A DNA stretch of 64,000 bases from Gemmatimonadota bacterium (GCA_016194585.1 JACQBG010000034.1:50147-114146); one strand, 5' to 3'. Shown: positions 17,901-54,201, counted from the stretch's first letter. Numbers and translations are program-made. The notes: generated from the letters alone by a model not told the origin.

Positions 17901-20900
17901 TGGATCGTCAAGACCGGCGCCGATGTCGTCACCGTCGACGACGAGCCGTTCACCCCCGTCGCCGCGGGCGTGATGGTCGTGTTCCCCGCGCCCGTCGCGA
18001 GGATGACGACGTTCGCGGCGAGCTGTCCGGCGGGGATGAACGCTGGGTCGGGGGAGACGGCGGCGCGTCCGGCCGTGCCGTAGCCGAACGTCACGTACGT
18101 CCCGCCGGCCGGCGACGGATCGGAGAGCAGCACCTGCGTCGACAACTGGTCGTTGACGTTCAGGTAGTAGTTCGTCGTCGAGAGCTTCACCGTCGCCTGC
18201 ACCGCCAGCACCGCGGTGTCGGGGGTGTAGCCGAGGGCGCTGCCGTCGCTCGCGTAGATGAGAGTCGTGCCGGCGTTGTGTCCGTTGAGCGTCGCGTTCG
18301 CCGACGTGCTGCCGGCCGGGATGACCACGGTCGACGGGGCGGTGAAGAACGCGAACGTGTCCTTCACCGCGAGGTTGATCGTGATCGGACTCAGGCTGGG
18401 CTTGCTGAGGTAGACGGGCACCGACGCGCTTCCTGACCGACCGACCGTCAGCGTGTCGCGGCCGAACGAGATGATCGCCGGCACGGCGCCGCCGACGGTG
18501 ATCGTCGAGGCGTTCGAGGTGATCGTGCCGGTCGCCGAGTCCTTGGCCGTGATGAGCGCCGTGCCGTTCGCGACGCCGGTGACGACGCCGGTGGTCGCGG
18601 TGACCGTCGCGAACGACGTCGCCGACGACGAGAAGGTGAAGGCGCCGCCGGAGATGAAGAAGCCGTTCGCGTCCTTGCCGCGCGCGAGGAGCGCCGTCGA
18701 GCCGGTGGGCGCGATCGTGACGGCCGTCGGCGAGAGGTCGATCGCCGTGAGCACCTGCTTCACGTTGAGCAGCGCGGCGCCGGACACGCCCTGGGCCGAC
18801 GCCGAGATGCTCGTGGAGCCGTTCGCCGCCGCCGTCGCGCGCGCCGTCGTCGTGCCGGTGGAGTCGATCGCCGCCACCGATGCGTTCGACGTCGCGAAGG
18901 TGAAGGTGATGCCGGTCATCACGTTGTTGAGCGTGTCGTACGCGGTCGCCTTGAACGACCGCGACCGCCCGAGCGCCGCGAGCGTGAAGGTGTCGCTCTT
19001 CGTCGTCGCGAAGCCGGCCGAGTCGCGCGACACGAAGATCTTCGTGATCGGGGTGAGGACGTTGAGCGTGGCGATGCCGGTAACCGCGCCGGCCGTGGCC
19101 CGCACCTGCGTGGAGCCGAGCCCGACGCCGGTGGCGACGCCGAGCGTCGTGACGGACGCGACCGCCGACGAGGCCGTGCTCCACGTGAACGACGGTTGCA
19201 CCGCGAGCGCGACGCCGAGCCCGTCTACCGCGCTCGCGGCGAACGCGTACGACGCGCCGAGATAGACGTTGCGCGCGTTGGGCGTGACGTTGATCGTCGC
19301 CAGCCGCTGCTGCACGACGACCTTCGCCGAGTCCTTCGTGCCTCCACTCTCCGTCGCGACCACCCACGTCGTGCCGTTCGTCACGGCGGTGACCGTGCCC
19401 GACGCGTTCACCGTCGCGACGGCGGGGGTGCGACTGACCCAGACGAAGGTGCCCGCGACGTTGTTGCTGCTCGCGTCCTTGGCCTGCGCCGCGAGGCCGA
19501 ACGTGGCGCCGATCGCCGTCAACGTGTCGAGGTGCGGCGTGACCACGGTCGACGCGACGGTCGCGGCGCCGCTGTTCGCCGTCGCCGTGAGCGGCGATCC
19601 GGTGAGCCCCGCGCTCGTGATCGTCAGCGTCTGCGGCGACACGCTCGCGCCGAGCGTCCACGTGGTCTGCGCGTTGCCGGCCGCGTTCGTCGTCGCGCTC
19701 ACCGGGTTGACCGAGCCGCCGCCGGTCGCGACGGCGAAGTTCACCGTCTTGCCGGCGACGCCGTTGCCGAACGCGTCGACCGTCTGCACGACGACGGGGT
19801 TCGGCAGCACCGTGCTGACGGCGGCCGTCTGGAAGTTGCCGGCCGTGATGACGACCGACGTCGCCGCGCCGGCGGTGATCGCGAATGCCGTCGTCGTCGC
19901 GCTCGTGAGGCCGCTCGATGAGGCGACGAGCGTGTAGCCCGTGCCGCTCTTGTTGAGGCTGAGCCCGCTGAAGGTGGCGACGCCGGCCACGGCGTTCACC
20001 GACGCCGTGCCGCTGAGCGTCGACGTGCCGGGGTTCGTCCCGATGGCGAGGCTCACCGGACCGGTGAACGACGTCACGCGCAGGTTCGACGCGTCACGCG
20101 CCTCGACGGTGATCGCCGGCGAGATGCTTACGCCGGCGGCGTACGTCGCGCCGGGCTGCGTCGTGATGACGAGTTGCGTCGGCGTGCTGCTCGCGTTGTT
20201 CGCGGTGGCGGTGGCCGTCTTCGCGAACGCGGCGAGGCGCGGCCCGGAGATCGCGAGCGACTGCGCGCCGGTCGAGGCGCCGAGCGTCCAGGTGGTCTGC
20301 GCGTGCCCGGTGGCATCCGTCGTCGCCGACGCCGGCGCGGCGCTGCCGCCGTTCGCCGCGGCGAAGGTCACGGTCTCGCCCGGCACCGGATTCCCGGCCG
20401 CGTCGGTGACGCGGACGATCACCGGCTGCGCGAGCGCCGCGCCGGTGGCGCCGGTCTGTCCCGAACCGCTCACGATGACGAGGGCGGCCGGCGCGCCGGC
20501 GGTCATGTCGAACGCGGACGAGGTGCCGCTCGTGAGTCCCGGCGCGCTCGCGATGAGCGTGAACCCCTTGCCGGCCGTGCTGATGGCGAGACCGGGGAAG
20601 GTCGCGACGCCGGCGACGGCGGCCACGCTGGTCGCCCCCTTCAGCGAGCCGCCCCCAGACACCGCGAGCGAGATCGTGCCGGTGAAGCTCGTCGCGACGT
20701 TGCCGTGCGAATCCTGCACCGTCACGACGGGCGCCGGCGTGAGCACGGCGTCGATCGAGCCGCCGGTGGGCGACTGCGTGAAGACGAGCGTCGCCGCCGG
20801 ACCGGCCGTGATGTCGAAGGGGTTCGACGTCGCGCTGGTGAGTCCGCCCGCCGCGGCCGTGAGCGTGTAGCCGGTGCCCGGCGCCGAGACGCTGAGCCCG

Positions 20901-22135
20901 GTGAAGGTCGCCACGCCGCCGACGGCGTTCACCGTCGCCGTTCCCCCGAGCGTGGCACTCGCGGTGCCGCCGGCGAGGGCGATCGTCACCGGGCCCGTGA
21001 ACGTCGTCGCGAGGTTCCCGAGGTTGTCCTGCGCCTGCACGACGACGGCGCTCGTGAGTCCGGTCACCGGCTGCGTCGTGAACGCGAGCTTCGCCGGCAC
21101 GGGGAGGGTCGCGGTCGCCGTGAAGGTCGCCGGGGTCGAGACGCCGGCGGCCGTCGCCGTGACGCTCTGCGCCACGGTCGTCGGGCCGAGGCGCCAGGTC
21201 GTCTGCGCGAGGCCGTTGCCGTCGGAGGTCACGACCGTCGTGCCGACGCTGCCGCCGCCGGACGTCACGGCGAAGGTGACGGCGATGCCGCCGAGCGGGA
21301 GGTTGTCGGTGCCGAGCACGCGCGCGACGAGCGGGGCGGGGAGCGTCGAGTTGATGACGGCGCTCTGCCCGCTCCCCGACTGCGCGCTGATCGACTGCGG
21401 GTTGGCCGTGACGGTGACGATCGCCGTGTCGGCCTTGTTGGTGAGGAGCTGCGCGACGATGCGGGCCGTGCCGCGCGCGACGGCCGCGCCGGCGCCCGAG
21501 GTGCTCATCGACGCGACGGCCGGATCGAGGCTGGCCCAGATGATGGGCGTGCCGGCGATGGGATTCCCCGCGCCGTCGACGGCGTTGGCCGTGAAGCTGA
21601 ACGGGTCGCCGATGCCCAGCGAACGCGTCTTGGGTGCCGCGATGCGGACGGCGGTCGCGTTGGCGCCGGGTCCCGTGTAGGCGACGGGGACGTTCACCGG
21701 CGGCGGCTTCGAGCCGCCGACGGTCGCCGGGACGGCCGTGATCGACACGGGGCCGCCGCTGAAGACCACGACGCCGGCCGCGTTGACGTAGGCGAGGTCG
21801 AGCGTCATCGGCTCGCCGCCGACGGGCGCGTTGGCCAGGAGCGGCACCGAGAGCGAGAGGTCGAGCTCGGTGGCGGTCGAGGGGAAGTCGACGAGCGTAT
21901 CGAGCGCGAGCGTGCCGTCGGAGTGGTGCAGGACGACGCGCACCTTGGTGAACGACACGAGTCCGGCGCTGGCCGCCTGCTGGTACACGGTCGGGAACAC
22001 CGTGTTGAACGACACCCCGCGCGCGATCCGGACGACGGAGTCCTTGAGTCCCGTCACCTCACGGCCGCAACTCCACAACGCCGCGACGAGGATCGCGACA
22101 GCGAAGAGAGGAGATCGACGGGGGGGCTTCGTCAC
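14978..22135 (-). CDS. giant (~2385 aa) surface lipoprotein with Ig-like domains and alternating uncharacterised repeats
   Basis: A single ORF 14978..22204 with high GC3 throughout. GTG 22135 gives MTKPPRRSPLFAVAILVAALWSC, which aligns with the paralogue's signal peptide. The protein contains Big_1/Big_2-like modules and is very poor in charged residues. Confidence 0.85.
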   Translation of the reverse strand: MTKPPRRSPLFAVAILVAALWSCGREVTGLKDSVVRIARGVSFNTVFPTVYQQAASAGLVSFTKVRVVLHHSDGTLALDTLVDFPSTATELDLSLSVPLLANAPVGGEPMTLDLAYVNAAGVVVFSGGPVSITAVPATVGGSKPPPVNVPVAYTGPGANATAVRIAAPKTRSLGIGDPFSFTANAVDGAGNPIAGTPIIWASLDPAVASMSTSGAGAAVARGTARIVAQLLTNKADTAIVTVTANPQSISAQSGSGQSAVINSTLPAPLVARVLGTDNLPLGGIAVTFAVTSGGGSVGTTVVTSDGNGLAQTTWRLGPTTVAQSVTATAAGVSTPATFTATATLPVPAKLAFTTQPVTGLTSAVVVQAQDNLGNLATTFTGPVTIALAGGTASATLGGTATVNAVGGVATFTGLSVSAPGTGYTLTAAAGGLTSATSNPFDITAGPAATLVFTQSPTGGSIDAVLTPAPVVTVQDSHGNVATSFTGTISLAVSGGGSLKGATSVAAVAGVATFPGLAISTAGKGFTLIASAPGLTSGTSSAFDMTAGAPAALVIVSGSGQTGATGAALAQPVIVRVTDAAGNPVPGETVTFAAANGGSAAPASATTDATGHAQTTWTLGASTGAQSLAISGPRLAAFAKTATATANNASSTPTQLVITTQPGATYAAGVSISPAITVEARDASNLRVTSFTGPVSLAIGTNPGTSTLSGTASVNAVAGVATFSGLSLNKSGTGYTLVASSSGLTSATTTAFAITAGAATSVVITAGNFQTAAVSTVLPNPVVVQTVDAFGNGVAGKTVNFAVATGGGSVNPVSATTNAAGNAQTTWTLGASVSPQTLTITSAGLTGSPLTATANSGAATVASTVVTPHLDTLTAIGATFGLAAQAKDASSNNVAGTFVWVSRTPAVATVNASGTVTAVTNGTTWVVATESGGTKDSAKVVVQQRLATINVTPNARNVYLGASYAFAASAVDGLGVALAVQPSFTWSTASSAVASVTTLGVATGVGLGSTQVRATAGAVTGIATLNVLTPITKIFVSRDSAGFATTKSDTFTLAALGRSRSFKATAYDTLNNVMTGITFTFATSNASVAAIDSTGTTTARATAAANGSTSISASAQGVSGAALLNVKQVLTAIDLSPTAVTIAPTGSTALLARGKDANGFFISGGAFTFSSSATSFATVTATTGVVTGVANGTALITAKDSATGTITSNASTITVGGAVPAIISFGRDTLTVGRSGSASVPVYLSKPSLSPITINLAVKDTFAFFTAPSTVVIPAGSTSANATLNGHNAGTTLIYASDGSALGYTPDTAVLAVQATVKLSTTNYYLNVNDQLSTQVLLSDPSPAGGTYVTFGYGTAGRAAVSPDPAFIPAGQLAANVVILATGAGNTTITPAATGVNGSSSTVTTSAPVLTIQPSSLRLGAGQFEYNQYAWVPQNIFAPLSVPLTSSDTSKVTVPTPLTIATGYNYAYFNTTGKLPGVATVTASATNWTSGTMSVLVTSPKLGISGGTTLNTTSPAQNVTIYAEDSLSAAHYRTNALAVQLASSDTTVLKVINPSVSIPAGQYYVNSAQVIPGGAGGTAWVKVTASGHAADSTQYTVVGPKLNFSWYSNRTAAGQDDYNLYVYTPNNVTSTLTVSIANADSNIVGLPTSVTIPVGSSYVYFNVRGKAVGTDTFIASAPGYQPDTAFYTVTSPRLSLSGGGTMNNFGPNSGFTVYSADSLRSAHYRHTPLVVTYTSSDPTVFTVTSSADTIQTGLYYANHVQVTPVGVGTAWLKVTASGHAADSVSYTVQTPQLGVNFSRAIIGRRQYAPSGGYVYIPNSRPTPVTVTVAQRHPTVDSLSATTLVIPANTSYLYFDYAGLTVGSDTLAITAPGYLSTSAIVTVTTPKLTTGGLPSTALTTSTPSTVTVYATDSLGSGHYILDTLVVSAVSSNGAVIQPTAPSSRIYRGGYYTQPTVAYTGPGTASMTYADSLGSGYGSVTTNTVTVTGPSLGISNGTTVLGMRQNGGPNSAYVYVANAVTGSPLVVTLTSSDPTVVAVPATVTIPVGYTYAYFQITAQNTIGTIQVTATASGYGGANTTVQVTAPKFVLSANSSVNTTSPRQGITVYAEDANGTAHYVNQNLAVALASSSTAVGTVDSAFVTILAGAYYNNNAKFIPLTAGTTQLSATDTTSASYRYAAGTQTVAVNTPSLSLNWGASEYLGIGQYDDRAAQTPDNQATALTVSFSHFNAASTSPSSVVIAAGQNYGFVRVTGASTGTDTITATALGHNPAKGAVIVGPGRIDQISSWPSTLSLAGTDSVLVTMYARDPNNSSTHYVTAATTFTLTGSANVGFVSGGASSAPITSVTIPADGYYAQFWVKGLTAGTSSVTIANANYVTYSPTITVTP

Positions 22136-22271
22136 GTGTTGCGCGATGTCGCTCGGTGGGACACGGGCGGGTGGGCCACTGAACCCAGCCCTCCGCGGCT
22201 GCACAGTTCCTCGGGCTGATAACGTACGGTCAACTACCTAGGCGCAACAAGGGACTGGAACGCCACAATAA

Positions 22272-25554: not shown

Positions 25555-25800
25555 GCGGACGCCTCCCGGATGGCGCGGTCGCCTGCGCCACCGCCCGTGC
25601 GGTCGCGGTGCGCCGTCGCGCCCCGAAGGTAACCGGCGGGCGCGGAGGCGAACACCCCTCGGCGCGAGAGGCCGAGAAGCCGCGTACAACCCTTTTGGCG
25701 GATCGAGTGTCGAATCTTCCGGTCAGCAGGTTCCGTACTCGACGATGTGCCGACGCATCCGCGCCTCCGCGGATGTCACGCGCCACCCCCGCGCCAAGAC

Positions 25801-28347
25801 ATGTTCCCGACGTTTCTGCTGGCATTCCAAGCCGTGACCGCGGTCGAGGCCACCACGCCCGCTCGTCCGCGCGCGGCGGTCGTCGCCGAACCGTCGGCGG
25901 CGCGCGCCACGGCGTCGCTCGCCACGACGCCGCCCGTGATCGACGGGCGCGACGACGACGCGGTATGGCGCACGGCGGCGCCGATCACGGCGTTCCGGCA
26001 GTTCGATCCCGTCGAGGACGGCGAGCCGCCGATGGCGACCGAGGCGAAGGTCGCCTACGACGAGAAGTACCTGTATGTGTTCGTGCGCGCCTTCGACCCG
26101 CACCCCGACAGCATCCGCTCGTACCTGTCGCGGCGCGACACGCACACGCCGTCGGACCAGATCAAGGTGATGATCGACTCGTATCACGACCGCCGCACGG
26201 GCTACGAGTTCGCCGTGAACCCGGCGGGGGTGAAGCGCGACTATTCGATGGACGGCGACGCCAACGAAGACGACTCGTGGGACGGCGTGTGGGACGTCGC
26301 GACGCGCATCGACGACAAGGGGTGGACGGCGGAGTTCCGCATCCCGTTGAGCCAGATGCGTTATGCGAAGTCGCCGGACCAGGTGTTCGGCTTCGCCATC
26401 TGGCGCGACATCGCGCGCACCAACGTGCGGGTGAGCTGGCCCGTGTACCGCCGGACGAAGACGGGGCTGGTGTCGCAGCTCGGCGAGGTGACCGGGCTCG
26501 ACCAGCTCGGCGCGCCGCGCCGCCTCGAGGTCACGCCCTACACGGTCGCGAAGGATCTGACCAACATCCGCAACGACGGCACGTTCGCCGGCCGCGCGCA
26601 GAAGATGACGGGCGGCGCCGACATCAAGTACGGCGTGACGTCGAACCTCACGGTCGACGCGACGATCAACCCCGACTTCGGCCAGGTGGAGGCCGACCCG
26701 TCGGTGCTCAACCTCACGTCGTTCGAGCAGTACTATCAGGAGCGGCGGCCGTTCTTCCTCGAGGGCGCGGGGATCTTCCGCTACGACCTCGACTGCAACG
26801 ACGGTCAGTGCACCGGACTGTTCTACTCGCGCCGCATCGGGCGCGCGCCCCAGCTCAGCTACCTGTACGGCGACGCGTCGACCAAACAGAGCACGAACAT
26901 CATCGCGGCGGCCAAGCTCACGGGGCGGCTCGCGAACGGCCTCTCCATCGGCGTGCTCGACGCGGCGACGGAGCAGGTGAAGGGGCCGAACGGCGAGACG
27001 GTGGAGCCGCAGACGAACTACGCGGTGGCCCGCCTCAACAAGGACTTCCGCGGCGGCAACAGCGTGATCGGCCTGATGTTCACGGGAGTGAACCGCCAGC
27101 TCGACCGGTGGAGCCAGGACTCGCTGCGGCGCAGCGGGTACGTGCTCGGTCTCGACGGGCGGCACCGGTTCGCCGGCAACAATTATGAAGTGAGCGGATA
27201 TCTCGCCGAGAGCTACGTCGAGGGGTCGGCGTCGTCGATCGCGTCGACGGAGGCGAGCAGCGTCCACAACTTCCAGCGCCCCGGTTCGGGGCTCGACTTC
27301 GACACCACGCGCACCAGCCTCGGCGGCTACACGGCGCAGCTCGCGCTCGCCAAGACCGGGGGCGGCATCGTGCGGTTCTTCACGTCGCTCAAGCGCACCT
27401 CGCCCGGCTTCGAGATCAACGACGCCGGGTTCCAGACGCGGGCCGACGCGCAGAACTGGAGCGGATGGATGGGACTCCAGTACAACGAGCCCACGTCGTG
27501 GTACCTGAAGGCCCGCGTGAACTTCAACGGCTGGTCGCAGTGGAGCACGAACGGGCTCAACACCGATCTCGGCGGCAACATCAACGCGCACGTGCAGCTC
27601 AACAACCAGTGGTGGCTGCACGCCGGCTACAACGTGTTCAACATGGGCCACACGTGGGACGACCGTGGCGCGCGCGGCGGGCCGGCGATGCCGTGGCTGC
27701 CGACCGCGGCGGCGTGGGCCGGGGTGGAGACCGACCAGCGGTGGGCGGTGTCGCCGGGGATCTTCTTCAACGCCCGCATGAAGGACGCGGCGGGCACGTG
27801 GAGCTACGGCATCGACCAGCAGACCACGCTGCGGCTCTCCTCGCGGATGCAGGCGGTGGTCGGCGGTTCGTTCTTCCGGCAGGCGAACGACGCGCAGTGG
27901 AACGGCAACTTCGCCGACGCCACGGGCACGCACTACACGTTCGCGCACCTCGAACAGACGCTCACGAGCCTCACGACGCGCCTCGACTTCACGGCGACGC
28001 CGACGCTCTCGCTGCAGCTGTATGCGTCGCCCTTCATCACGAGCGGCCAGTACACGAACTGGCGCGAGATCGCCGACCCGAACGCGGCCCGCTACGAGGA
28101 CCGGTACCGCCCGTTCACGAGCCAGGGCGACCCGGGGGGCTTCAACTTCAAGCAGTTCCGGTCGAACACCGTCATCCGCTGGGAATACCGGCCGGGATCG
28201 ACGCTGTTCATCGTCTGGACGCAGGGACGCACGCAGGACGGCGTGGACGTGGGGACGTTCCAGTTCAACCGCGACGCGCAGAACCTCTTTCGCGCCGTCC
28301 CCGACAACTCGCTGCTGATCAAGAGTTCGTACTGGTTCAATTGGTAG
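25801..28347 (+). CDS. DUF5916 / carbohydrate-binding-family-9-like domain protein (paralogue 1)
   Basis: Internal ATG 25801 with signal peptide. IDGRDDDAVWRTAAPITAFRQFDPVEDGEP...YLYVFVRAFD is CBM9/DOMON-like. The long C-terminal region is beta-rich. Paralogous to 51755..54085. Confidence 0.75.
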   Translation: MFPTFLLAFQAVTAVEATTPARPRAAVVAEPSAARATASLATTPPVIDGRDDDAVWRTAAPITAFRQFDPVEDGEPPMATEAKVAYDEKYLYVFVRAFDPHPDSIRSYLSRRDTHTPSDQIKVMIDSYHDRRTGYEFAVNPAGVKRDYSMDGDANEDDSWDGVWDVATRIDDKGWTAEFRIPLSQMRYAKSPDQVFGFAIWRDIARTNVRVSWPVYRRTKTGLVSQLGEVTGLDQLGAPRRLEVTPYTVAKDLTNIRNDGTFAGRAQKMTGGADIKYGVTSNLTVDATINPDFGQVEADPSVLNLTSFEQYYQERRPFFLEGAGIFRYDLDCNDGQCTGLFYSRRIGRAPQLSYLYGDASTKQSTNIIAAAKLTGRLANGLSIGVLDAATEQVKGPNGETVEPQTNYAVARLNKDFRGGNSVIGLMFTGVNRQLDRWSQDSLRRSGYVLGLDGRHRFAGNNYEVSGYLAESYVEGSASSIASTEASSVHNFQRPGSGLDFDTTRTSLGGYTAQLALAKTGGGIVRFFTSLKRTSPGFEINDAGFQTRADAQNWSGWMGLQYNEPTSWYLKARVNFNGWSQWSTNGLNTDLGGNINAHVQLNNQWWLHAGYNVFNMGHTWDDRGARGGPAMPWLPTAAAWAGVETDQRWAVSPGIFFNARMKDAAGTWSYGIDQQTTLRLSSRMQAVVGGSFFRQANDAQWNGNFADATGTHYTFAHLEQTLTSLTTRLDFTATPTLSLQLYASPFITSGQYTNWREIADPNAARYEDRYRPFTSQGDPGGFNFKQFRSNTVIRWEYRPGSTLFIVWTQGRTQDGVDVGTFQFNRDAQNLFRAVPDNSLLIKSSYWFNW

Positions 28348-42015: not shown

Positions 42016-42588
42016 ATGAACCTGATCCGTTCGACCCGGCCGTTCGCGCATGTCGTCATCGGACTGGCCGTCACGCTCATCGGAGCGGCGCCCCTCCGGG
42101 CCCAATCATTCGTCGAGTTCGGCGGTGGCTGGAATTACTTCGCCCTCGGGCCCGACGGCGGAAAGTTCGCCAACGGGTACAATGTCCGAGCCTCTGTCGG
42201 CCAGGTGGCCGCGCCGCACGTGAGCGTGCGACTCGATCTCTTCACCGTCGAGTTCGATCGGAAGATGCAGCTCTATCCGCCCTGCGCGTACCCGGGGTGC
42301 ACCCATCCCTTCTACGACACGCAATCCATGGGCGCCGCCGGACTGACCGCGAACGTCATCTGGAACGTCGACTCCCGCGGGATCCTCTACGCCATCGGCG
42401 GAGCGGGGTTCTACGACCTCCACGGCGCCGTCAGCGAACTCCGGCCGGGCGTCTCGGCGGGCGCGGGGATCGCGGTGCCCGTCGGCGTGAGGCTGCGGGC
42501 GATCGTGGAGGCGCGCTGGCACGGGCTGATCAGTACCACCGCGGGACCATCCTCGATCGTGCCGATCACCCTCGGCTTCCGCTACTGA
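42016..42588 (+). CDS. small outer-membrane beta-barrel protein
   Basis: Internal ATG 42016. Signal peptide ending APLRAQ, alternating strands, terminal ITLGFRY. Confidence 0.65.
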   Translation: MNLIRSTRPFAHVVIGLAVTLIGAAPLRAQSFVEFGGGWNYFALGPDGGKFANGYNVRASVGQVAAPHVSVRLDLFTVEFDRKMQLYPPCAYPGCTHPFYDTQSMGAAGLTANVIWNVDSRGILYAIGGAGFYDLHGAVSELRPGVSAGAGIAVPVGVRLRAIVEARWHGLISTTAGPSSIVPITLGFRY

Positions 42589-42687: not shown

Positions 42688-44667
42688 TCAGTGCGTCGGC
42701 CCCGTCTTCACCATCTTCAGCTCCGGCAGGTTGCGCAGGTCGTTCACCCGCGCCGCCGGATACCCGAGCTCCTCGAACGGCATCACGCCCTTCTCCTTCG
42801 ACGTGTGGCACGAGGTGCACTGCATCGCGTCGCGCGTGATCGAGTGATTCACCATCAGCGTCGCGTCCTGCCGCATCCACCGTGCCGCGACCTTGCCGCT
42901 GAATGGGATCGTCCATCCCTTCTCGATCCCCATGTAGTGCATGAAGTCGTCCATCATGTATTTCTTGAACACCTCGCCGTACATGAGCTTGATGATCGGG
43001 TCCTCGGTGGCCTTCATCACCGCGGCCTTGGGGTCACCCTTCTCGTAGTAGACGTTGTAGTCGAACGGCAGCAGCATGCCGCCGAACGGGCCCTGGTTGC
43101 CGAGGTCCTCGTTCATCTTGGCGTTGAACCGCTTGAACGGCGTGATCTTCGACTTCCCCAGCTTGCCGAGCGGACGGAACGTCTTCTCGTAGTACGCCTT
43201 GTAGTCGAAGTTCGCGTACGCCGAGTCGGGCGTGGTCGTGAACGCGGTGTAGAGGTTCTGGCCGTTCGGGTTGTCGCCGAGCGCGCCGGCCATGAACGAA
43301 CCGTCGCCGTTGTGCCAGCGGTACACGAGTGCCTCGCCGGGCTTCCCGGAGCGGAGCAGGTCGCGGTAGATCCAGATCCCTTCCTCCTTCACGAAGATGG
43401 GATCGGTCCAGTCGCGGAGCACGACGTTGTCGTCGGTGAGGTGCGTGATGTGGCACGTCTCACAGGCGAGCTTGTCGGTATGCGCGTTCAGGAAGGCGCG
43501 CGTGCTGGTGTTCTGCACGTGCGGCGTCGACGAGTGGCACCGCTCGCAGCTCACCTCCACGCCGGGGAGGTCGTTCGACACGAGATCGGTGCCGCGCGTG
43601 CCGCGGGCGATCAGGTGCCCGTGCGACTCGTGGCAGTCGAGGCACTGCAGTCCCGCCATGTAGTGCAGGTCGGCGCCGCGCGTGGGGTTCCCGCGCTTCG
43701 CCCCGGGGTGCAGGATGCGCGGGTTCTTGTAGCCACGGTTCTGCGCGGCGAGGTTCTCGGGATACATGTCGCCGCCGTGGTTGTGCTCGTGGCAGCGCAG
43801 GCAGTTGTCGCTCGTCGGTCGCACCACGGCCATCGCCGCCTTCAGGCTCCGGTCCTGGTTCCACCGCGTCTTCCCGTTCGGGTCCTGCACGACGTACTTC
43901 TCGTTCATGTCGTACGCCTTCGAGTGGCACATCAGGCAATCGCTCGAGGCGAACTCGGCGTCGACGGGCTTGTAGCCGGGGAACATCGTGCCGGTCATGG
44001 GGCCGTACTGGCCGCCCGGATGGCATTGACCGCAGCCGTCGCTGTAGGTCTTGCCGTCGGCGCTCTTCACGAGCACGGCCCACGCCGTCCAGGTGAACGA
44101 GCCGGGGATGCCGCAGGCGCGGTCGATCTTCCCCATCGGGATGCCGTCCACCTTCTGGCCGTTGAAGCCGTACGTGTTGAAGCCGGTGAACTTGTTCAGC
44201 CCGAAGTGCACGCTCTGCTGCAGGTTCTGCCGCAGGTCGACGGTCTCGTAGCCGCCCTTGCCGTCCTTGATCTTGATCTGCTTGTGGCACTGGAGGCAGG
44301 TCTCGGGACCGCGGTACTCGCGGATGCCCGCCTTGCGGAACCGCTCGATGTGCGTGAGCCCCACCCGTCGGTCGAACGACGCCACGTGGCCGGCGACCTG
44401 CGCCGCCACGGCCTTGTACACGGCGGGGTTCTTCGCCGCGGTGTCGACGGAGACGTACGGCCGCTGCTCGTCCTCGAGCTGCTTGGCGACGCGCTCGAAC
44501 TCGACGTCGCTCAGGCGCTGCACCGGGTAGTCGATGCGCCCGGGGCGGTGCTGCCACGGCACGACGAGGTTGACGAGGTTCGAATAGTTCCAGACGAGCA
44601 ACACCACCGCGACCACCGCGACGGCGCCGCCACGCAGGAACCAGCGCTGCTTCTTCGAGAGAGTCAT
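42688..44667 (-). CDS. membrane-anchored octahaem c-type cytochrome (659 aa)
   Basis: Internal ATG 44667 (MTLSKKQRWFLRGGAVAVVAVVLLVW, N-terminal TM helix). Eight CxxCH motifs: CLQCH, CGQCH, CLMCH, CLRCH, CLDCH, CERCH, CETCH, CTSCH. ATGA overlap with the cytochrome b gene. Confidence 0.85.
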   Translation of the reverse strand: MTLSKKQRWFLRGGAVAVVAVVLLVWNYSNLVNLVVPWQHRPGRIDYPVQRLSDVEFERVAKQLEDEQRPYVSVDTAAKNPAVYKAVAAQVAGHVASFDRRVGLTHIERFRKAGIREYRGPETCLQCHKQIKIKDGKGGYETVDLRQNLQQSVHFGLNKFTGFNTYGFNGQKVDGIPMGKIDRACGIPGSFTWTAWAVLVKSADGKTYSDGCGQCHPGGQYGPMTGTMFPGYKPVDAEFASSDCLMCHSKAYDMNEKYVVQDPNGKTRWNQDRSLKAAMAVVRPTSDNCLRCHEHNHGGDMYPENLAAQNRGYKNPRILHPGAKRGNPTRGADLHYMAGLQCLDCHESHGHLIARGTRGTDLVSNDLPGVEVSCERCHSSTPHVQNTSTRAFLNAHTDKLACETCHITHLTDDNVVLRDWTDPIFVKEEGIWIYRDLLRSGKPGEALVYRWHNGDGSFMAGALGDNPNGQNLYTAFTTTPDSAYANFDYKAYYEKTFRPLGKLGKSKITPFKRFNAKMNEDLGNQGPFGGMLLPFDYNVYYEKGDPKAAVMKATEDPIIKLMYGEVFKKYMMDDFMHYMGIEKGWTIPFSGKVAARWMRQDATLMVNHSITRDAMQCTSCHTSKEKGVMPFEELGYPAARVNDLRNLPELKMVKTGPTH

Positions 44668-45434
44668 CTGTCCACTCCGGGATCTTCGATCGGGTCGTTC
44701 GATGTCGACGGGGTCGCCGGTGCGGCGCCCGCCGTCGCTTGCTGCTCCTGCAAGAGACGTTCGTACTCCAGCGGATGCTCCTTGCGGATCTCGCTCTCCG
44801 AGATGCGGCCGTCCCACCACACCCAGCTCATCGGGAACTTGTCGGGGTTGTAGTGCACGTTGTAGAAGTGCCACACCACGATCGCCGAGATGGCGAGGAT
44901 GGCCTCGTCGCTGTGCATGACGTAGGCGATGCCGATCGTGAGGTCGGGGAGCGCGTTGCCGAAGAACACGGGGAACCAGAGCACGAGCCCCGAGAACATC
45001 ATCACCGGCAATCCCCAGAACACGGCGAAGTAGTCGAACTTCTCGCGGAAGCTGAACCGGTCGTAGGGGGGCAGGTCGGGGCGGAGCCCCCAGTAGTAGC
45101 GCGACGTCTGCCACCAGTCGCTCGCGTCCTTCAGCGTCGGGATGATGGGCCACGCCTTGCGCACGTCGTAGCCGCTCTTCCGCAGCAGGTGGAAGAGGTA
45201 GCCGAGGTGCAGTACGCCGTCGAGGATCATGACGACGGCCGAGACGCGGTGGATGGTGCGCGCCACGGCGAGTCCGCCCACGAGCGTGTACACCACGCCC
45301 AGCCAGTGCGTCTCGGGGAAGCGCATGGGCAGGCCCGTGATGGCGAGCGCCAGGAAGCTGCCCAGCATGAGCCAGTGCTGCACGCGCTGGAAGAGCGAGA
45401 GGCGGATGAAGTGGCGCTCGGCGTGGTCGGTCAT
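44664..45434 (-). CDS. b-type cytochrome membrane subunit (FdnI/PhsC/Ni_hydr_CYTB-like)
   Basis: RVQHWLMLGSFLALAITG motif, 4-5 TM helices with conserved His residues. ATG 45434 is preceded by GGAG and avoids the 17-nt overlap implied by the longest ORF (start 45461). Confidence 0.75.
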   Translation of the reverse strand: MTDHAERHFIRLSLFQRVQHWLMLGSFLALAITGLPMRFPETHWLGVVYTLVGGLAVARTIHRVSAVVMILDGVLHLGYLFHLLRKSGYDVRKAWPIIPTLKDASDWWQTSRYYWGLRPDLPPYDRFSFREKFDYFAVFWGLPVMMFSGLVLWFPVFFGNALPDLTIGIAYVMHSDEAILAISAIVVWHFYNVHYNPDKFPMSWVWWDGRISESEIRKEHPLEYERLLQEQQATAGAAPATPSTSNDPIEDPGVDR

Positions 45435-45444
45435 CGGAGCTCCG

Positions 45445-46473
45445 TCAGTCGACGAGGACACGGCGGACCGCGCCCCACACGAGAGTGAGCGGGCGCCGCA
45501 GCGAGAGGAGCTGGCGGCCGAGCCAGGCGAGCGCGCGACGCAACAGCGCGACCCACCGGTACTTCACCTGCACGTCGAGCACGATGCCGGCCACGAGCAG
45601 CGCCATCGTGCCGAGGGTGAGCACCTTGAAGAACAGCTCGAGGAAGGCGAGGATCGGCTCGCGGTCGATGCGCAGCGCGAGGTGGTTGGCGCCCGACATG
45701 GCGAAGTTGAGCTTCGCGCCGCGGTGGCAGCCGGACTGGCCACAAGTCTTGGCGATGTTCCCGACGGCGATCGACGAGGCGGTGCTGTCGTGCGGCAGCG
45801 GGCGGTGCGCGGTGTGGCAGTCCTGGCAGACCGCGGCCGTGGTGGAGCCGAACGTGATCGCCTTGTAATGGAAGCTGCGGCGATAGGAGCTCACGGCGTC
45901 CGGCGTGACCTTGTGCTGCGTCATCAGCGCGCGGTCGTCGTGGCAGGTGACGCACTGCGCCATCTTCTGGCGTGACGTCAGGGTGTGCGGCGACTTCGGC
46001 ACGGCGTGCGGGTCGCCGCCGCCGTGACAGGTGGTGCAGCGCGGGCTCCCGGAGGTCGCGTCGGTGAGTCCCTTGCGGTGGGCGCTCGACTCGAAGTCGG
46101 TGAGGGCGCGCTGGTGCGTGTACGGCTTGCCGGCGGCGTCGGTGGCGTGGCAGTCGGCGCCGCACGATACCGGGCGGCGAGGTGTCGTGAACTCGTGCGG
46201 GTAGCCCTGCACGTCGGCGTGGCACTGCCGGCACTCGAGCCTGGCGTGCGCGGAGGCGGCCAGCGTGTCGGGCGACACGGTGTAGCGGTGCACCGCCAGG
46301 GTGGCGGAGTCGCGCACGGCGAGGTTGGGGAGGGCGTGGCAGCGGAGGCAGGGCGCAGAGCCGTTCGCGCCGGAGACAGGAGAGGGAAGGGGGGCCGCGC
46401 CGCGCTGCGACTGCGCCGGCGACGCCATCAGCAGCGCCGCCGCCACCCCCGCGATCCCCGACCGGAATGCCAT
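45445..46473 (-). CDS. multihaem c-type cytochrome (5 CxxCH + CX3CH + CX4CH) with C-terminal TM anchor
   Basis: Signal peptide. Motifs CLRCH, CRQCH, CGADCH, CTTCH, CVTCH, CQDCH, CGQSGCH. C-terminal hydrophobic helix ILAFLELFFKVLTLGTMALLVAGIVL. Confidence 0.85.
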   Translation of the reverse strand: MAFRSGIAGVAAALLMASPAQSQRGAAPLPSPVSGANGSAPCLRCHALPNLAVRDSATLAVHRYTVSPDTLAASAHARLECRQCHADVQGYPHEFTTPRRPVSCGADCHATDAAGKPYTHQRALTDFESSAHRKGLTDATSGSPRCTTCHGGGDPHAVPKSPHTLTSRQKMAQCVTCHDDRALMTQHKVTPDAVSSYRRSFHYKAITFGSTTAAVCQDCHTAHRPLPHDSTASSIAVGNIAKTCGQSGCHRGAKLNFAMSGANHLALRIDREPILAFLELFFKVLTLGTMALLVAGIVLDVQVKYRWVALLRRALAWLGRQLLSLRRPLTLVWGAVRRVLVD

Positions 46474-46676
46474 CACGTTCGCACGTGCTCCTGAGCCGTT
46501 GCGCCGCTCGTCGCGGGCGTCGCCCGGGTGGGCGACGAAACGTTTACAGGCTCACCTGCATCCTAGGAGTCATCGCAGGTACGGGACATCAGGGAAGTAG
46601 ACATATATCTGTAAGGAAATATGTCGATATGGTTGACCATCACGCCGGATACGGGGGGGGCGGTCGCATCCCGGGC

Positions 46677-48401
46677 ATGCCGCACGCGCCGGTGCGTCGC
46701 GCGGACCGCGCGACGGCCCTGTATCGTTCAACAGCGTTCCGTATCGCTTCGAGCCCCTCGCCGACCCGAACCCGAGCCCCGACGCCCGTGTCCGAGCACC
46801 CGCGTGCCGCACGCCGCCCTACCGACGCCTGGCTGGGGATGCTCCTCCTCGCCTTGCTCGTGGTGGCGTACGCCCCGGCGCTGAACGGCGGCTACGTGTG
46901 GGACGACGACGCCCACGTCACGAGGACCGCGCTCCGCTCCCTCGACGGCCTGCGCCGCATCTGGTTCGACCTCGGCGCCACGCAGCAGTATTACCCACTG
47001 TTGCACTCGGCATTCTGGCTCGAGGCGCAGCTCTGGGGCGACGTCACGCTCGGCTACCACCTCACGAACGTCGTGCTCCAGTTCGCCGATGCGTCGCTCA
47101 TCGTGGTGCTGGCGCAGCGGCTCGGCATCCGCGGCGCGTGGCTCGCCGGCTTCCTCTTCGCGCTGCACCCCGTGCACGTGGAGTCGGTGGCCTGGATCTC
47201 GGAACAGAAGAACACGCTCTCGCTGCTCTTCTACCTCGCCGCCGCGCTCGCGTACCTCCGCTTCGACGAACGGCGCGCCGGGCGCGACTACGCGATCGCA
47301 TCGGCCCTCTTCCTCTGCGCGCTCCTCACGAAGACGGTGACGGCCACGTTGCCGGCCGCGCTGCTCGTGCTGTTCTGGTGGCAGCGCGGGCGGCTCAGCT
47401 GGCGGCGCGACGCGCGGCCGCTCCTGCCCTGGTTCGCCGTCGCCGCGGCAAGCGGGTTGTTCACCGCCTGGGTCGAGCGGCACATCATCGGCGCGGAGGG
47501 TTCGGAGTACGCGCTCGACGCCCTGCAACGCGCGCTGCTCGCGGCGCGCGTCATCTGCTTCTACCTGGGCAAGCTGTTCTGGCCGGCGGATCTCATCTTC
47601 ACGTATCCACACTGGACGATCGATCCGGGCTCGCCGGCCACGTGGGGATGGGTGGGGCTGCTCGTGGCGATCGCCGCCGCGCTGTGGGCGGTGCGAGGGC
47701 GCTCGCGCGCGCCGCTCGCCGCGCTGCTCCTCTTCTGCGGTTCGCTCTTCCCGGTGCTCGGGTTCCTCGACATCTACCCGTTCCGCTACTCGTACGTGGC
47801 CGATCACTTCCAGTACCTCCCGAGCGTCGGCATCATGGTGGCGGTCGCGGCAGGGCTCGCGTGGATCGCCGATCGGGTGCAGCTCCCGCGCGGCGCGCGG
47901 CTGGCGGCGGCAGGCGCGCTCGTCGTCACGCTCGGCGCGCTCACCTGGCGGCAGAGCGGCATGTACGCCGACGCGGAGACGCTCGACCGCGCGACGCTCG
48001 AGCGCAATCCCGACAGTTGGAAGGAGCAGAACAACCTCGGTCGCCTGCTGGCCCGTTCGCAGCGGCGGATGCCGGAGGCGATCCCGCACTACGAGGCGGC
48101 GATCCGCCTCAAGCCGGATCACGTGCTGGCGCACTACAGTCTCGGGGTGGCATTGTACGTCACGGGGCGACGCCCCGAGGCGGTCGAGCATTTCCGGCGC
48201 GTGCTGCGACTCGCTCGCGGGAATGGGTTGCTGGTCGCCAATTCGCACTTCTTCCTCGGCGCGATCCTGATGGACGAACCCGGGCGGTTGGACGAAGCGA
48301 TCGCGGAACTGGAGGAGGCGTTGCGCATGAAGCCCGGCGATGCCGAAGTCACGGGACGACTCGATGAGGCGCGCGCGTTGCGATTGCGCGGTGGGCGATA
48401 G
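46677..48401 (+). CDS. GT-C-fold membrane protein with C-terminal TPR repeats (TMTC/PMT_2/DUF1736-like)
   Basis: ~10 TM helices. First-loop motif NGGYVWDDDAHV, then HPVHVESVAWISEQKN. C-terminal TPRs (NNLGRLL...YEAAIRLKPDHVLAHYSLG...). The start is uncertain: 46629, 46677 or 46839. Confidence 0.75.
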   Translation: MPHAPVRRADRATALYRSTAFRIASSPSPTRTRAPTPVSEHPRAARRPTDAWLGMLLLALLVVAYAPALNGGYVWDDDAHVTRTALRSLDGLRRIWFDLGATQQYYPLLHSAFWLEAQLWGDVTLGYHLTNVVLQFADASLIVVLAQRLGIRGAWLAGFLFALHPVHVESVAWISEQKNTLSLLFYLAAALAYLRFDERRAGRDYAIASALFLCALLTKTVTATLPAALLVLFWWQRGRLSWRRDARPLLPWFAVAAASGLFTAWVERHIIGAEGSEYALDALQRALLAARVICFYLGKLFWPADLIFTYPHWTIDPGSPATWGWVGLLVAIAAALWAVRGRSRAPLAALLLFCGSLFPVLGFLDIYPFRYSYVADHFQYLPSVGIMVAVAAGLAWIADRVQLPRGARLAAAGALVVTLGALTWRQSGMYADAETLDRATLERNPDSWKEQNNLGRLLARSQRRMPEAIPHYEAAIRLKPDHVLAHYSLGVALYVTGRRPEAVEHFRRVLRLARGNGLLVANSHFFLGAILMDEPGRLDEAIAELEEALRMKPGDAEVTGRLDEARALRLRGGR

Positions 48402-51754: not shown

Positions 51755-54085
51755 CTACTGGGCTCCCACGGTCTGGCTGAACACCCAGCTCAGCTTCACG
51801 AAGAAGCCGTCGGTCGACCGGCGCAGTTGCTGGAAGGCGAGCGGATCGGCCTCGACGAGACTGTTGCCGTAGCCGGCGAAGAACACGGTGCCTGGCGACG
51901 GCCGGTACGAGATGAGGAAGTCGGCGCGCAACAGGTTCGACTGCTGTTCCGTGGCCGGGACGAAGGTGCCGTCGCCGGCGGCGACCAACAGGATGCGCCC
52001 GGTCGACGGGTCGACGAGCGGCTCGCGCAGGGTGGCCGTGTACTGCGACACGATGCGCACGAACAACGGGCGCGCGATCTGGTACTCCACCTTGAGGCGC
52101 GGGATGCGCGTCGTCGCGGTGCGCACGCCGTCGCCGAGCCGCGTGAAGGTCGAGCTCACATATGTCGCGCTCACGCGCAACTGGTTGCTCGGACGCAGGT
52201 CGAGCGAGGCGTTGTAGTCGGTGCGCCGCACCGCCGACGTCTCGAAGAAGTCGACGTCCTGGCCGAACGTGCCGCCGACGGAGGCGGTGAAGCCGGGGAA
52301 TTGCGGCGTCGCGAGACTCACCGCCACGACCGATGTGTTCTTGCGCCCGAGCGGCACGAAGGCGCGCGCCGAGCCGTCGGCGGCCGTCGTCCGCACGTTC
52401 GCATACGCCGCGGAGTCGAACGCGTAGCTCGACAACGTCGGCGAGACGTTGAGGTTCCAGCCGCCGCGAAGCGTGAACTGCGTGTTCGCGTTGGCGAAAT
52501 CCTCGAGCACGTGCTGGCCGTTGTAGAAGTCGTCGTACTTCCAGGTGCCGCCCTGACGGAAGTACACGTTGAACCGCTCGAGGAAGGCCCCCGGCGCGCC
52601 GTACCATGTGTACCGATTCGCGATGCTCGGCTGCACGACGCCGGTGCGCGTGACGAAGCCGTTGTCGGTGGCGAAATCGGGGTGGATGGCGAGGATGTTG
52701 TAGTGGAAGCCGAAGGTGCGCCCCGTGCGGTCGACGAGCGCCTCCCACATCGGTCCGCTGCGCGCGCCGGCGGCATCGCTCGTGCCGCTCATCACCGCCT
52801 GGAACTGGGCGTAGTACAGCTTGCCGAACACGTAGTGCAGGTCGGCCCCGCCGACGCGGTTCGTGCGCCCGCCGCCCACGCGGTCGCTGTAGAAGACGCC
52901 GGTGGTCGACTGCCCCCCGAGGTCGCGCTGCAGGCGGACGACGTCGACGAGCGGCCGCTGGCCGTTGGGCGTCGTGGAGCCGTCGTCGAGCGCCGAGAGC
53001 ACGGCGACGTCGTTGTCGCCGAGTTTGCCGGTGAGCTTCATGGCGGCGTCGGGCTGCACGATGCGCCGCGTGTAGATCATCGTGTTGGGGACGTTGAACA
53101 GGTCGCTCCCCTCGACGAAGAACGGCCGTTTCTCCGGATAGAACAGCGCGAACCGCGCGTCGGCGGCGATCTGCGTCGCGTCGGCCTCGACCTGCGAGAA
53201 GTCGGGCTTGATGGTGCCGTTGAGGACGAAGTTGCTGCCGAGCCCCCAGCGGATGTTGCCGCCGAGCTGCGGGTGCGACGTGTAGCCCCAGCCGGCGCCG
53301 GTGGCGCCCGTGGGCGCACCGGTGATCGTGCTCGTGAGCTCGGGGTTCAGGTCGATCGTCTGGCCGTGCGTGATGCCGGCGATGCCGCGCAGCTCCCCTT
53401 CCTGCGCGATGAAGCTCGCCGAGCCCTTGAGGGCGCGGGTCCACGTCTCCTCGTAGCCCGAGTGCTGCACGTGGCGGTCGATCTGGATCCCCCAGCGCTG
53501 CTCGTGCGTGGCCGGATAACGCAGGCTGCTGAAGGGGATGCGGATCTCGACTTCGTAGCCGTAGTCGGTGAGCCGCCCCTTCGAGTCCCAGAGGTAGTCG
53601 GCGCTGAGGTCGGTCTGCCCCGGCATGATGTTGGAGCCCGGGATGTAGCCACCGCTCTCGTTCTTGGTGCCGTCGGCCTGCACGCCGAAGGGATTGACGA
53701 TGAACACGAAGGCGCGGCGCCCCTCGTGGAAGGTGTCGAGGTGGATCTCGACGTTGTCGTCGGCGGAGATCTTGTCGCGGTCGGCGAGCGTGGCGCGCAC
53801 GACGCCGTGTGGCTCGAAGGCGCGGATGCCGAAGTAGATCGCCGTCGGCGTGTACCAGACGAGCACCTCGGTGGAATCCGGGGCGGGGCGCTGGTCGGCG
53901 GGCTGGTACTCGGAGAAGCCGGTGAGGAGCGCGGCGCGGCGCCAGACGGGCTCGTCGAGCTTGCCGTCGATGACGATCGGCGACTCGAGCATGGGCGCCG
54001 TGGCGATGGTCTGCCCCTTGAGCGCGTGGTAGACGTCAGGCTGCCCGGCGGCGAGCTGGAATGCGGCGAGGAAGGGTAGGAGCAT
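51755..54085 (-). CDS. DUF5916 / CBM9-like domain protein (paralogue 2)
   Basis: Internal ATG 54085 (MLLPFLAAFQLAAG). IDGKLDEPVWRRAALLTGFSEYQP...IYFGIRAFEP parallels 25801..28347. The stop lies 4 nt upstream of the kinase start. Confidence 0.75.
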   Translation of the reverse strand: MLLPFLAAFQLAAGQPDVYHALKGQTIATAPMLESPIVIDGKLDEPVWRRAALLTGFSEYQPADQRPAPDSTEVLVWYTPTAIYFGIRAFEPHGVVRATLADRDKISADDNVEIHLDTFHEGRRAFVFIVNPFGVQADGTKNESGGYIPGSNIMPGQTDLSADYLWDSKGRLTDYGYEVEIRIPFSSLRYPATHEQRWGIQIDRHVQHSGYEETWTRALKGSASFIAQEGELRGIAGITHGQTIDLNPELTSTITGAPTGATGAGWGYTSHPQLGGNIRWGLGSNFVLNGTIKPDFSQVEADATQIAADARFALFYPEKRPFFVEGSDLFNVPNTMIYTRRIVQPDAAMKLTGKLGDNDVAVLSALDDGSTTPNGQRPLVDVVRLQRDLGGQSTTGVFYSDRVGGGRTNRVGGADLHYVFGKLYYAQFQAVMSGTSDAAGARSGPMWEALVDRTGRTFGFHYNILAIHPDFATDNGFVTRTGVVQPSIANRYTWYGAPGAFLERFNVYFRQGGTWKYDDFYNGQHVLEDFANANTQFTLRGGWNLNVSPTLSSYAFDSAAYANVRTTAADGSARAFVPLGRKNTSVVAVSLATPQFPGFTASVGGTFGQDVDFFETSAVRRTDYNASLDLRPSNQLRVSATYVSSTFTRLGDGVRTATTRIPRLKVEYQIARPLFVRIVSQYTATLREPLVDPSTGRILLVAAGDGTFVPATEQQSNLLRADFLISYRPSPGTVFFAGYGNSLVEADPLAFQQLRRSTDGFFVKLSWVFSQTVGAQ

Positions 54086-54201
54086 GGCCCGTGGAATATA
54101 GCGCCGAGGGTTTCGCCCCACTGTCGAAAGCGCTAACGTGATTTCCTCCCCCTCTTCCCTGCAGCCAACCCCTCCTCCTCCCCCTTTCCCTCCCCCTGCT
54201 C

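Follow-up and report, generated by a model that had tools for sequence, protein, structure and literature searches.

The window analyzed here, a stretch of 64,000 nucleotides of DNA from a Gemmatimonadota bacterium, carries on its minus strand a single unit of three coupled genes, A, B and C (46473-42688), which encode a heptahaem cytochrome c, a dihaem cytochrome b and a membrane-anchored octahaem cytochrome c, respectively. This module is a widely distributed Otr-type octahaem enzyme coupled to a quinol module resembling FdnI and CbcBA; it is uncharacterised and represents an extension of known designs rather than a new principle. We consider it probable that the operon encodes a three-subunit, 17-haem inner-membrane oxidoreductase which joins the quinone pool to a periplasmic catalytic haem and likely serves the quinol-driven reduction of a small nitrogen or sulfur oxyanion. 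Full-text literature searches retrieved no description of the C clade or of the A-B-C module. Gene A is annotated as "hypothetical protein", an identical copy of C is recorded from a Gemmatimonadetes metagenome-assembled genome as "cytochrome c3 family protein", and database entries for members of the C family read "cytochrome c3 family protein", "hypothetical protein" or an unsupported "nitrite reductase". The tight coupling of the three genes noted in the original prediction was confirmed both for the GGAG-containing spacer between A and B and for the overlap of B and C (Table 1).

The presumed catalytic subunit is encoded by gene C. Its product contains exactly eight CxxCH motifs (at residues 124, 212, 244, 289, 342, 374, 402, and 617) and one extra cysteine. 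Every CxxCH was invariant in 57 homologues, and eight such motifs in one open reading frame (ORF), all conserved in this way, are far beyond chance. The N-terminal transmembrane (TM) helix is preceded by the positively charged residues KKQR and has neither a cysteine nor an A-x-A cleavage site. The motifs CX15CH and CxxCK are both absent from C. The original prediction was accurate on the N-terminal helix, the eight motifs, the absence of CX15CH and CxxCK, and the length of the protein. Its two further statements on C, that the octahaem protein belongs to no assigned family and that the Lys/Tyr/Phe-rich region is foreign to known families, had to be abandoned in view of the following comparisons.

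The top NCBIfam match of C was TIGR04315 (tetrathionate reductase family octahaem), with an E value of 1.8e-17 over residues 209-414 only, whereas PF11783 remained below its cut-off (17.3 versus 22.1). A phmmer search of the PDB with C returned Otr of Shewanella (1SP3; E 8.4e-11), and a profile built from the 57 C sequences matched 1SP3 with E 4.7e-18 and added the C-terminal haem-8 block. An AlphaFold2 model of C based on the 57-sequence alignment, which contains no haems, reached a predicted local distance difference test score (pLDDT) of 82.9 and a predicted TM-score (pTM) of 0.82. Searching the PDB with this model by Foldseek gave 1SP3 as the sole significant neighbour (E 4.6e-17, prob 1.0, TM-score (target) 0.55, 516 columns); NrfA and ONR followed with E values of at least 0.75, and HAO and MccA were not found in this search. 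NrfA gave weak profile matches to C over haems 5-6. When the C family was compared by hhalign with an alignment of 56 canonical Otr-family sequences, the match was obtained with Prob 100 and E 7.5e-41 over 380 columns, which took in residues 122-640 of C and almost the entire Otr profile. The Otr set had been gathered with a 216-aa fragment of 1SP3 as query and consists of proteins of at most 378 aa, many of them partial, which was enough for a profile comparison.

In the hhalign alignment all eight haem motifs of C pair with those of Otr, and so do a number of sequence blocks between and around them (given as C/Otr): SVHF/HW.W, NCLRCHEHNHGGD/NCG.CHF.GGGGD, LNAHT..ACETCHI/LN.HT..ACQTCHIP, RDW/WDW, YRWHNG/Y.WYNG, KITPFK/KI.PFK, and, at the C-terminus, VNH...C..CH...F.ELGY/INH...C..CH...F.ALGY. 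The Lys/Tyr/Phe-rich region stands between two of these Otr-homologous blocks (KI.PFK and VNH...C..CH...LGY) and is mostly an insertion. Within the core from haem 3 to Y.W.NG, sequence identity was 49-93% among members of the C family and 40-90% among Otr sequences, but 24-35% between the two groups, and a neighbour-joining tree split them cleanly. Taken together, these sequence and model comparisons argue that C is a divergent, membrane-anchored member of the Otr superfamily that forms a separate sister clade and is not nested inside Otr. The possibility, considered in the original prediction, that C falls within an already characterised family was therefore borne out with respect to its relationship to Otr, but not with respect to its position in the tree. 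A profile search of 1.84 billion cluster representatives with C yielded 109 proteins at E ≤ 1e-30 and 1065 at E ≤ 1e-3; only a handful of full-length, high-scoring cluster representatives were obtained because the family is so conserved.

The likeness to Otr includes the presumed active site. In the segment G179-K180-I-D-R183-A-C185-G186 of C, residues G179, K180, R183, A184, C185, and G186 were invariant in the 57 homologues. In all of the 30 Otr sequences that include the N-terminus, a motif GK.N..NN(F/Y)C precedes the haem-2 motif by about 10 residues, and hhalign placed G179-K180 and C185 of C on the Lys and the Cys of this motif, which by count are Lys56 and Cys64 in the numbering of 1SP3. 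Lys56 is reportedly the ligand of the catalytic haem of Otr. This haem is described as having an ordinary CXXCH attachment and, as proximal ligand, a lysine from a neighbouring helix outside the motif (PMC13562315). By analogy, K180 is predicted to be the proximal ligand of the catalytic haem 2 of C, with C185 as a conserved neighbouring cysteine.

The cysteine position is of additional interest in Otr itself. In an Otr gene from Desulfobacterota (L087:5998-6000, on the 3.39-Mb metagenome contig ENA ERZ21862645) the conserved Cys of NNF-C has an in-frame TGA as its codon, so that the gene appears as two separate calls (...GKRKLINNF*MSPISNWCRCTSCH, with the asterisk at the TGA). A protein of NaphS2 (P0160) has the identical start, and 16 of 120 Otr cluster representatives start exactly one residue past the TGA/Cys position. 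A 7-bp hairpin with a GU-containing loop is located about 20 nt 3' of the TGA of L087, the overall fold energy being not exceptional. The TGA-containing genes probably mark a selenocysteine-containing subclade of Otr. A selenocysteine at this position would argue that the Cys is redox-active and would be a mild lean, though no proof, towards sulfur-type chemistry.

Subunit A showed the features that had been ascribed to it: a Sec-type signal peptide (residues ~1-22, with a signal-like h-region), seven haem motifs, and, according to hydropathy, a single C-terminal TM helix. The motifs comprise five CxxCH (CLRCH42, CRQCH81, CTTCH146, CVTCH174, CQDCH216), one CX3CH (CGADCH104), and one CX4CH (CGQSGCH244). 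All seven, including both non-canonical ones, were at least 97% conserved in 71 orthologues, and the same holds true for six distal histidines (H76, H93, H132, H156, H202, H223); H120 and H264 were also invariant in the close subfamily. A thus appears to be an electron wire with mostly His/His ligation, as the conservation pattern suggests. No family-specific model for A was found in Pfam or NCBIfam, which gave weak or marginal generic multihaem matches, and A had no PDB match by sequence. Its AlphaFold2 model (pLDDT 80.4) had no significant PDB neighbour either, the best being HAO with E 1.2. Nine cluster representatives (P0278, P0288, P0308, P0335, P0342, P0351, P0352, P0354, and P0355) are natural fusions of 550-600 aa between an A-like protein and a PF01292 domain, and long ORFs of this kind are also present in loci L027, L057, and L085. 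As the C-terminal helix of A runs straight into the cytochrome b domain in these proteins, they provide Rosetta-stone evidence that this helix sits against B.

Subunit B matched PF01292 (Ni_hydr_CYTB) with E 1.5e-14 and 54.6 bits, well above the gathering cut-off of 30.1, and E. coli FdnI (1kqf_C) with E 1.6e-5. H20, H62, H174, and H189 of B align with His18, His57, His155, and His169 of FdnI, its four haem b ligands in the numbering of the structure of formate dehydrogenase-N. These four residues, distributed over TM1, TM2, and TM4, were conserved in 94-99% of 68 B orthologues, whereas the remaining histidines of B were not. The PF01292 match and the four conserved, FdnI-aligned histidines identify B as a complete FdnI-type dihaem cytochrome b, in agreement with the original prediction. 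With 57.2 bits, B stayed below the cut-off of TIGR01583 (formate dehydrogenase gamma subunit; 115.85) and also below those of the hydrogenase subunit models. The operon contains no gene for a molybdenum enzyme.

To see how widely the module occurs, relatives of C and their flanking genes were examined. A homology search with C returned 757 relatives, and proteins from Bacteroidota, Ignavibacteria, Vicinamibacterales, and Eisenbacteria shared 70-83% identity with the protein from Gemmatimonadetes. When one genome per GTDB species was scanned, at least 380 places encoding C relatives came to light. The best 80 of these span more than 10 phyla and include, on the one hand, Gemmatimonadota, Bacteroidota/Ignavibacteria/Kapaibacteria/Melioribacteraceae, Acidobacteriota, Leptospiraceae, Zixibacteria, Eisenbacteria, Poribacteria, Myxococcales, and Alphaproteobacteria and, on the other hand, sulfur oxidisers and magnetotactic cocci, namely Achromatium, Thiomargarita, Parabeggiatoa, Thiohalocapsa, Lamprocystis, Rhabdochromatium marinum DSM 5261, Ectothiorhodospiraceae, and Magnetococcales. 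Chromatiaceae and Beggiatoaceae are also among the carriers, which range from Gemmatimonadota and Acidobacteriota of soil to giant and purple sulfur bacteria. Iterated searches of the flanks with hidden Markov models, carried out over 82 non-duplicate loci, placed A-like genes immediately upstream of C in 71 of them and B-like genes in 68, always in the order A-B-C; in a minority of loci C occurs alone or only A and C are present. In the cultured R. marinum DSM 5261 (L074), for example, the module encodes a cytochrome c of 353 aa with a C-terminal TM helix, a cytochrome b of 214 aa, and an octahaem protein of 747 aa.

Besides A, B, and C, the recurring neighbours were a MerR-type regulator (15 loci), a sigma54-dependent NtrC-type regulator (10 loci), and an ankyrin protein (10 Magnetococcales loci); other recurrent neighbour clusters proved to be antisense ORF artefacts. 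The MerR-type regulator has a Cys-rich C-terminal domain (CW..TKC...C...C.....C...C..C...) and is encoded directly upstream of A in the 15 loci, all from Bacteroidota/Ignavibacteria (e.g., L056:575-1030; L021:3726-4170; L004:5681-6158 and 10282-10783), but has no counterpart in the window. It may control the module in response to metals or to redox state. In single loci, genes for a NiFe-hydrogenase small subunit and an Fe-S protein (L074:1532-3901), for a Pyr_redox_2 protein together with DsrC-like and DsrE-like proteins (L004:10820-13585), or for an extra multihaem cytochrome and a rhodanese (L001:13604-15985) are located near the module. They hint at sulfur or hydrogen metabolism, none of them being consistent across loci. 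Near a canonical Otr gene, a 683-aa protein with a PF01292 domain is encoded (L088:8049-10100), followed by Sulf_transp and rhodanese genes, which indicates that the association of Otr-type enzymes with a cytochrome b is not confined to the clade of the window.

Comparison with known systems illustrates which parts of the module are familiar. C and Otr of Shewanella oneidensis (1SP3) have in common the order of the eight CxxCH haems, the fold, profile homology over the whole length, the conserved Lys and neighbouring Cys upstream of the haem-2 motif, and the C-terminal NH...C..CH...LGY block. They differ in that C, with 659 aa compared to about 440-480 aa, is some 200 residues longer owing to several insertions, including much of the Lys/Tyr/Phe-rich region, in that the spacing from K to C is 5 residues in C and 8 in Otr, and in that C has an N-terminal anchor followed by a helical linker of ~80 aa and is encoded together with its own cytochrome b and heptahaem partners, whereas Otr is a soluble periplasmic protein. 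With NrfA, ONR, MccA, and HAO, C shares a multihaem relay, predicted in C to end in a five-coordinate catalytic haem as it does in those enzymes, but it lacks the CxxCK motif of NrfA and ONR and the CX15CH motif of MccA. A further Otr-type enzyme, BOGUAY_2386 of the orange Guaymas Beggiatoaceae, reduces nitrite and tetrathionate in vitro (PMC6449678). As judged from its description, it resembles our system in having a 'thiosulfate reductase cytochrome b' gene as its neighbour, in this case in a sulfur oxidiser, but it has 582 aa and is reported to be a close relative of canonical Otr. The 'octaheme complex' of Ferrigenium described in a preprint is a different system based on a bd-like subunit.

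For the A-B pair, the original prediction had pointed to CbcBA of Geobacter sulfurreducens, which consists of a dihaem cytochrome b and a 7-haem cytochrome c with a C-terminal TM anchor; three of the b-haem histidines are reported to be in CbcB and the fourth to be contributed by the TM domain of CbcA (bioRxiv 10.1101/2021.04.15.440034). Compared by description, the outline is indeed the same, with a dihaem b subunit of the quinone-oxidoreductase type and a 7-haem c subunit with a C-terminal TM helix. Fused versions occur in both cases (the A-B fusions here and CbcL in Geobacter), and a sigma54-type regulator is found near the module in some of the related loci. The parallel does not extend to the haem ligands, since all four b-haem histidines lie in B, following the FdnI pattern, and the TM helix of A contains no histidine, H264 being located just before the helix and kept only in the close subfamily. 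Moreover, the A-B pair is coupled to a third, octahaem subunit and has no link to extracellular acceptors. In relation to FdnH/FdnI of E. coli (1KQF), the four ligand histidines of B align, and A, like FdnH, is a periplasmic wire held by a single C-terminal TM helix; the wire consists of seven c-haems instead of four Fe-S clusters, and the catalytic subunit is a haem protein instead of a molybdenum enzyme.

On this basis the following mechanism can be proposed. The topology signals suggest that the haem domains of A and C are periplasmic, as is required for c-type haem attachment, and that B resides in the membrane. Quinol would be oxidised at B, the quinone site of FdnI being on the cytoplasmic side, and the electrons would cross the two b haems to reach the seven haems of A, whose C-terminal helix would hold it against B. 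C, kept at the membrane by its N-terminal signal anchor, would receive them in its seven relay haems and feed haem 2, which is predicted to be five-coordinate as in Otr, with K180 rather than the His of a motif as proximal ligand and the invariant C185 and R183 beside it. The Lys-ligated haem 2 would then reduce a small periplasmic oxyanion, candidates being nitrite, hydroxylamine, tetrathionate, sulfite, or a related sulfur compound. The chain from the quinol pool via cytochrome b and the heptahaem cytochrome to the octahaem protein, as put forward in the original prediction, is the most economical reading of the operon. A quinol-oxidising complex of the FdnI type would be driven by the membrane potential and consume it, as proposed for PhsABC, which would suit low-potential acceptors, whereas the reverse reaction would conserve energy. 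In vitro, nitrite, hydroxylamine, and tetrathionate are all reduced by purified enzymes of the Otr type (PMC6449678; PMC12949373), which supports the reductase direction. In a genetic study from 2026, however, Shewanella sp. ANA-3 did not need Otr to respire tetrathionate, and sulfite reduction was suggested instead (PMC12949373).

Several points weigh against a quinol-driven oxyanion reductase. The related loci show no consistent linkage of the module to a substrate-specific partner gene, so that any substrate named here is a guess. FdnI, the archetype for B, passes electrons into the quinone pool, and many hosts of the module are sulfur oxidisers, which makes the oxidative direction the main rival. 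C is also so distant from Otr, failing the curated threshold of TIGR04315 with 63.5 versus 375 bits, that catalytic properties cannot simply be transferred, and even canonical Otr is without an established physiological role (PMC12949373).

If the same complex operated in reverse, C would oxidise a reduced compound in the periplasm, for instance hydroxylamine or a sulfur species, and the electrons would travel via A to B, where quinone would be reduced on the cytoplasmic side, giving a redox-loop half that generates proton-motive force as in formate dehydrogenase-N. The ligand-for-ligand alignment of B with FdnI, a quinone reductase, agrees with this, and so do the enrichment of sulfur oxidisers among the carriers (Chromatiaceae, Ectothiorhodospiraceae, Magnetococcales, and the genera Thiohalocapsa, Lamprocystis, Achromatium, Thiomargarita, and Parabeggiatoa), the DsrC-like and DsrE-like genes near one locus and the rhodanese near another, and the precedent of HAO as an octahaem oxidase. 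We nevertheless regard reversed flow as rather unlikely: all Otr-type enzymes assayed to date perform best as reductases, the Lys-ligated catalytic haems of NrfA, ONR, and Otr are reductase sites, PF01292 subunits also occur in the quinol-oxidising PhsC, CbcB, and CbcL, and many carriers (Gemmatimonadota, Bacteroidota, Acidobacteriota) are heterotrophs.

Alternatively, the complex might serve detoxification instead of respiration and use quinol to clear toxic nitrite, hydroxylamine, or NO, or else reactive sulfur species, from the periplasm of an organism that lives mainly aerobically. Apart from SURF1, an assembly factor of aerobic cytochrome oxidase, the rest of the window contains no other respiratory genes, and in particular none for anaerobic respiration; NrfA is known to detoxify NO and hydroxylamine, and the Cys-rich MerR-type regulator upstream of A would also fit a protective role. 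Yet a three-subunit machine with 17 haems and 70-80% identity across phyla must be under strong selection, as is typical of core energy metabolism, and no stress-response genes are consistently linked to the module, which in our opinion renders this explanation improbable. By far the least credible option is an extracellular electron-transfer conduit in which an outer-membrane barrel passes the electrons on to an insoluble acceptor. It was suggested by the similarity in outline of A and B to Geobacter CbcBA, which serves extracellular metal reduction, and by the ORF at 42016-42588 (plus strand), which has an outer membrane protein-like end (...LGFRY) and lies 99 bp from gene C. The original prediction had correctly recognised this small barrel gene, but its association with the module did not hold up: the ORF is convergent with C, a hairpin lies between them, and tblastn searches did not detect it in any of 86 related loci. 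The ORF also had no family match in Pfam or NCBIfam, the rest of the window contains no porin-cytochrome genes, and C itself has an inner-membrane anchor and shares with Otr a Lys/Cys active site of the enzyme type. The barrel being unrelated to the module, a role in extracellular electron transfer is without support.

The positions of the operon, its signals, and the relevant protein segments are summarised in Table 1.

Table 1. Features of the A-B-C operon and its flanks (positions counted from the first nucleotide of the window).
Feature	Position	Strand	Details
Divergent upstream intergenic region, presumed to bear the promoter	46474..46860	.	
Gene A, heptahaem cytochrome c	45445..46473	-	342 aa
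C-terminal TM helix of A, residues 273-303	45565..45657	-	hydropathy; AlphaFold2 shows one long helix 273-305
A-B spacer cggagctccg, with GGAG ribosome-binding site	45435..45444	-	10 nt between TGA stop of A and ATG of B
Gene B, FdnI-type dihaem cytochrome b	44664..45434	-	256 aa, 4 TM helices
ATGA overlap of B stop and C start (end of B reads ...AGATGA)	44664..44667	-	translational coupling
Gene C, membrane-anchored Otr-like octahaem cytochrome c, presumed catalytic subunit	42688..44667	-	659 aa
Signal-anchor helix of C, residues 7-37	44557..44649	-	hydropathy; AlphaFold2 helices 5-26 and 28-35
Active-site segment of C (G179 to G186)	44110..44133	-	
Perfect 13-bp inverted repeat with 5-nt loop	42633..42663	-	25 nt 3' of C stop; inverted-repeat search

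The inverted repeat downstream of C is likely a bidirectional terminator closing the operon. Because it lies inside the gap before the convergent ORF, A, B, and C would form a closed transcription unit. A terminator scan skipped this hairpin since it has no strong T-run, and the three terminator-like matches of that scan fall inside genes. In the upstream region, a promoter scan found no sigma-70 consensus. The genome has ~70% GC, but at 46598-46625, some 125-150 nt upstream of A, there is an AT-rich palindrome, GACATATATC-N6-GAAATATGTC, a candidate operator within this divergent region. The GC content of the module is 0.674 and that of its surroundings 0.704. At third codon positions, however, the GC content (GC3) of the three genes (0.945-0.956) is the same as in the host genes. 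The lower overall GC is therefore attributable to amino acid composition, and recent lateral transfer of the module was rejected.

Other neighbours in the window, besides the outer membrane protein-like ORF, encode Big_2 proteins, DinB, a PAS hybrid kinase, a PMT_2/TPR protein, and a Ser/Thr kinase, and are not conserved beside the module. A functional tie of the module to the barrel, the PMT_2/TPR protein, or the Big_2 neighbours was rejected, as in the tblastn searches none of them adjoined the module in the 86 loci except for a weak PMT/TPR match in L058. Together with a TMEM260/TPR gene near the module in L001, this match was treated as coincidence. The PMT_2 (glycosyltransferase 39-like) and TPR membrane protein is encoded divergently from the operon at 46467-48401 (plus strand). 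As listed, this ORF and gene A overlap at their starts; the first ~130 residues of the ORF also look non-coding, and its true start is therefore probably located further downstream. Elsewhere in the window, a very large ORF of 2408 aa with a coding-like GC3 of 0.95 is present at 14978-22204 (minus strand), and two paralogous DUF5916 outer-membrane-type proteins are encoded at 25747-28347 (plus strand) and 51755-54121 (minus strand), the first of which also contains a CBM9 domain.

Otr-type octahaem cytochromes have been known structurally since 2004. The physiological function of Otr is still disputed (PMC12949373). Unlike soluble Otr, the C clade has a fixed partnership with a quinol module, which makes the question of the electron donor tractable. 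If the complex is a reductase for nitrite/hydroxylamine or for sulfur oxyanions, as the favoured reading has it, gene C would be a marker currently overlooked by metagenomic surveys of the nitrogen and sulfur cycles. We also put forward, as a tentative possibility, that A-B-C is a widespread quinone-coupled respiratory enzyme of the Otr type with a reaction unlike any assigned so far, e.g., sulfur chemistry via the haem-adjacent cysteine. If true, working out this reaction would also provide a first firm physiological role for the 20-year-old Otr superfamily.

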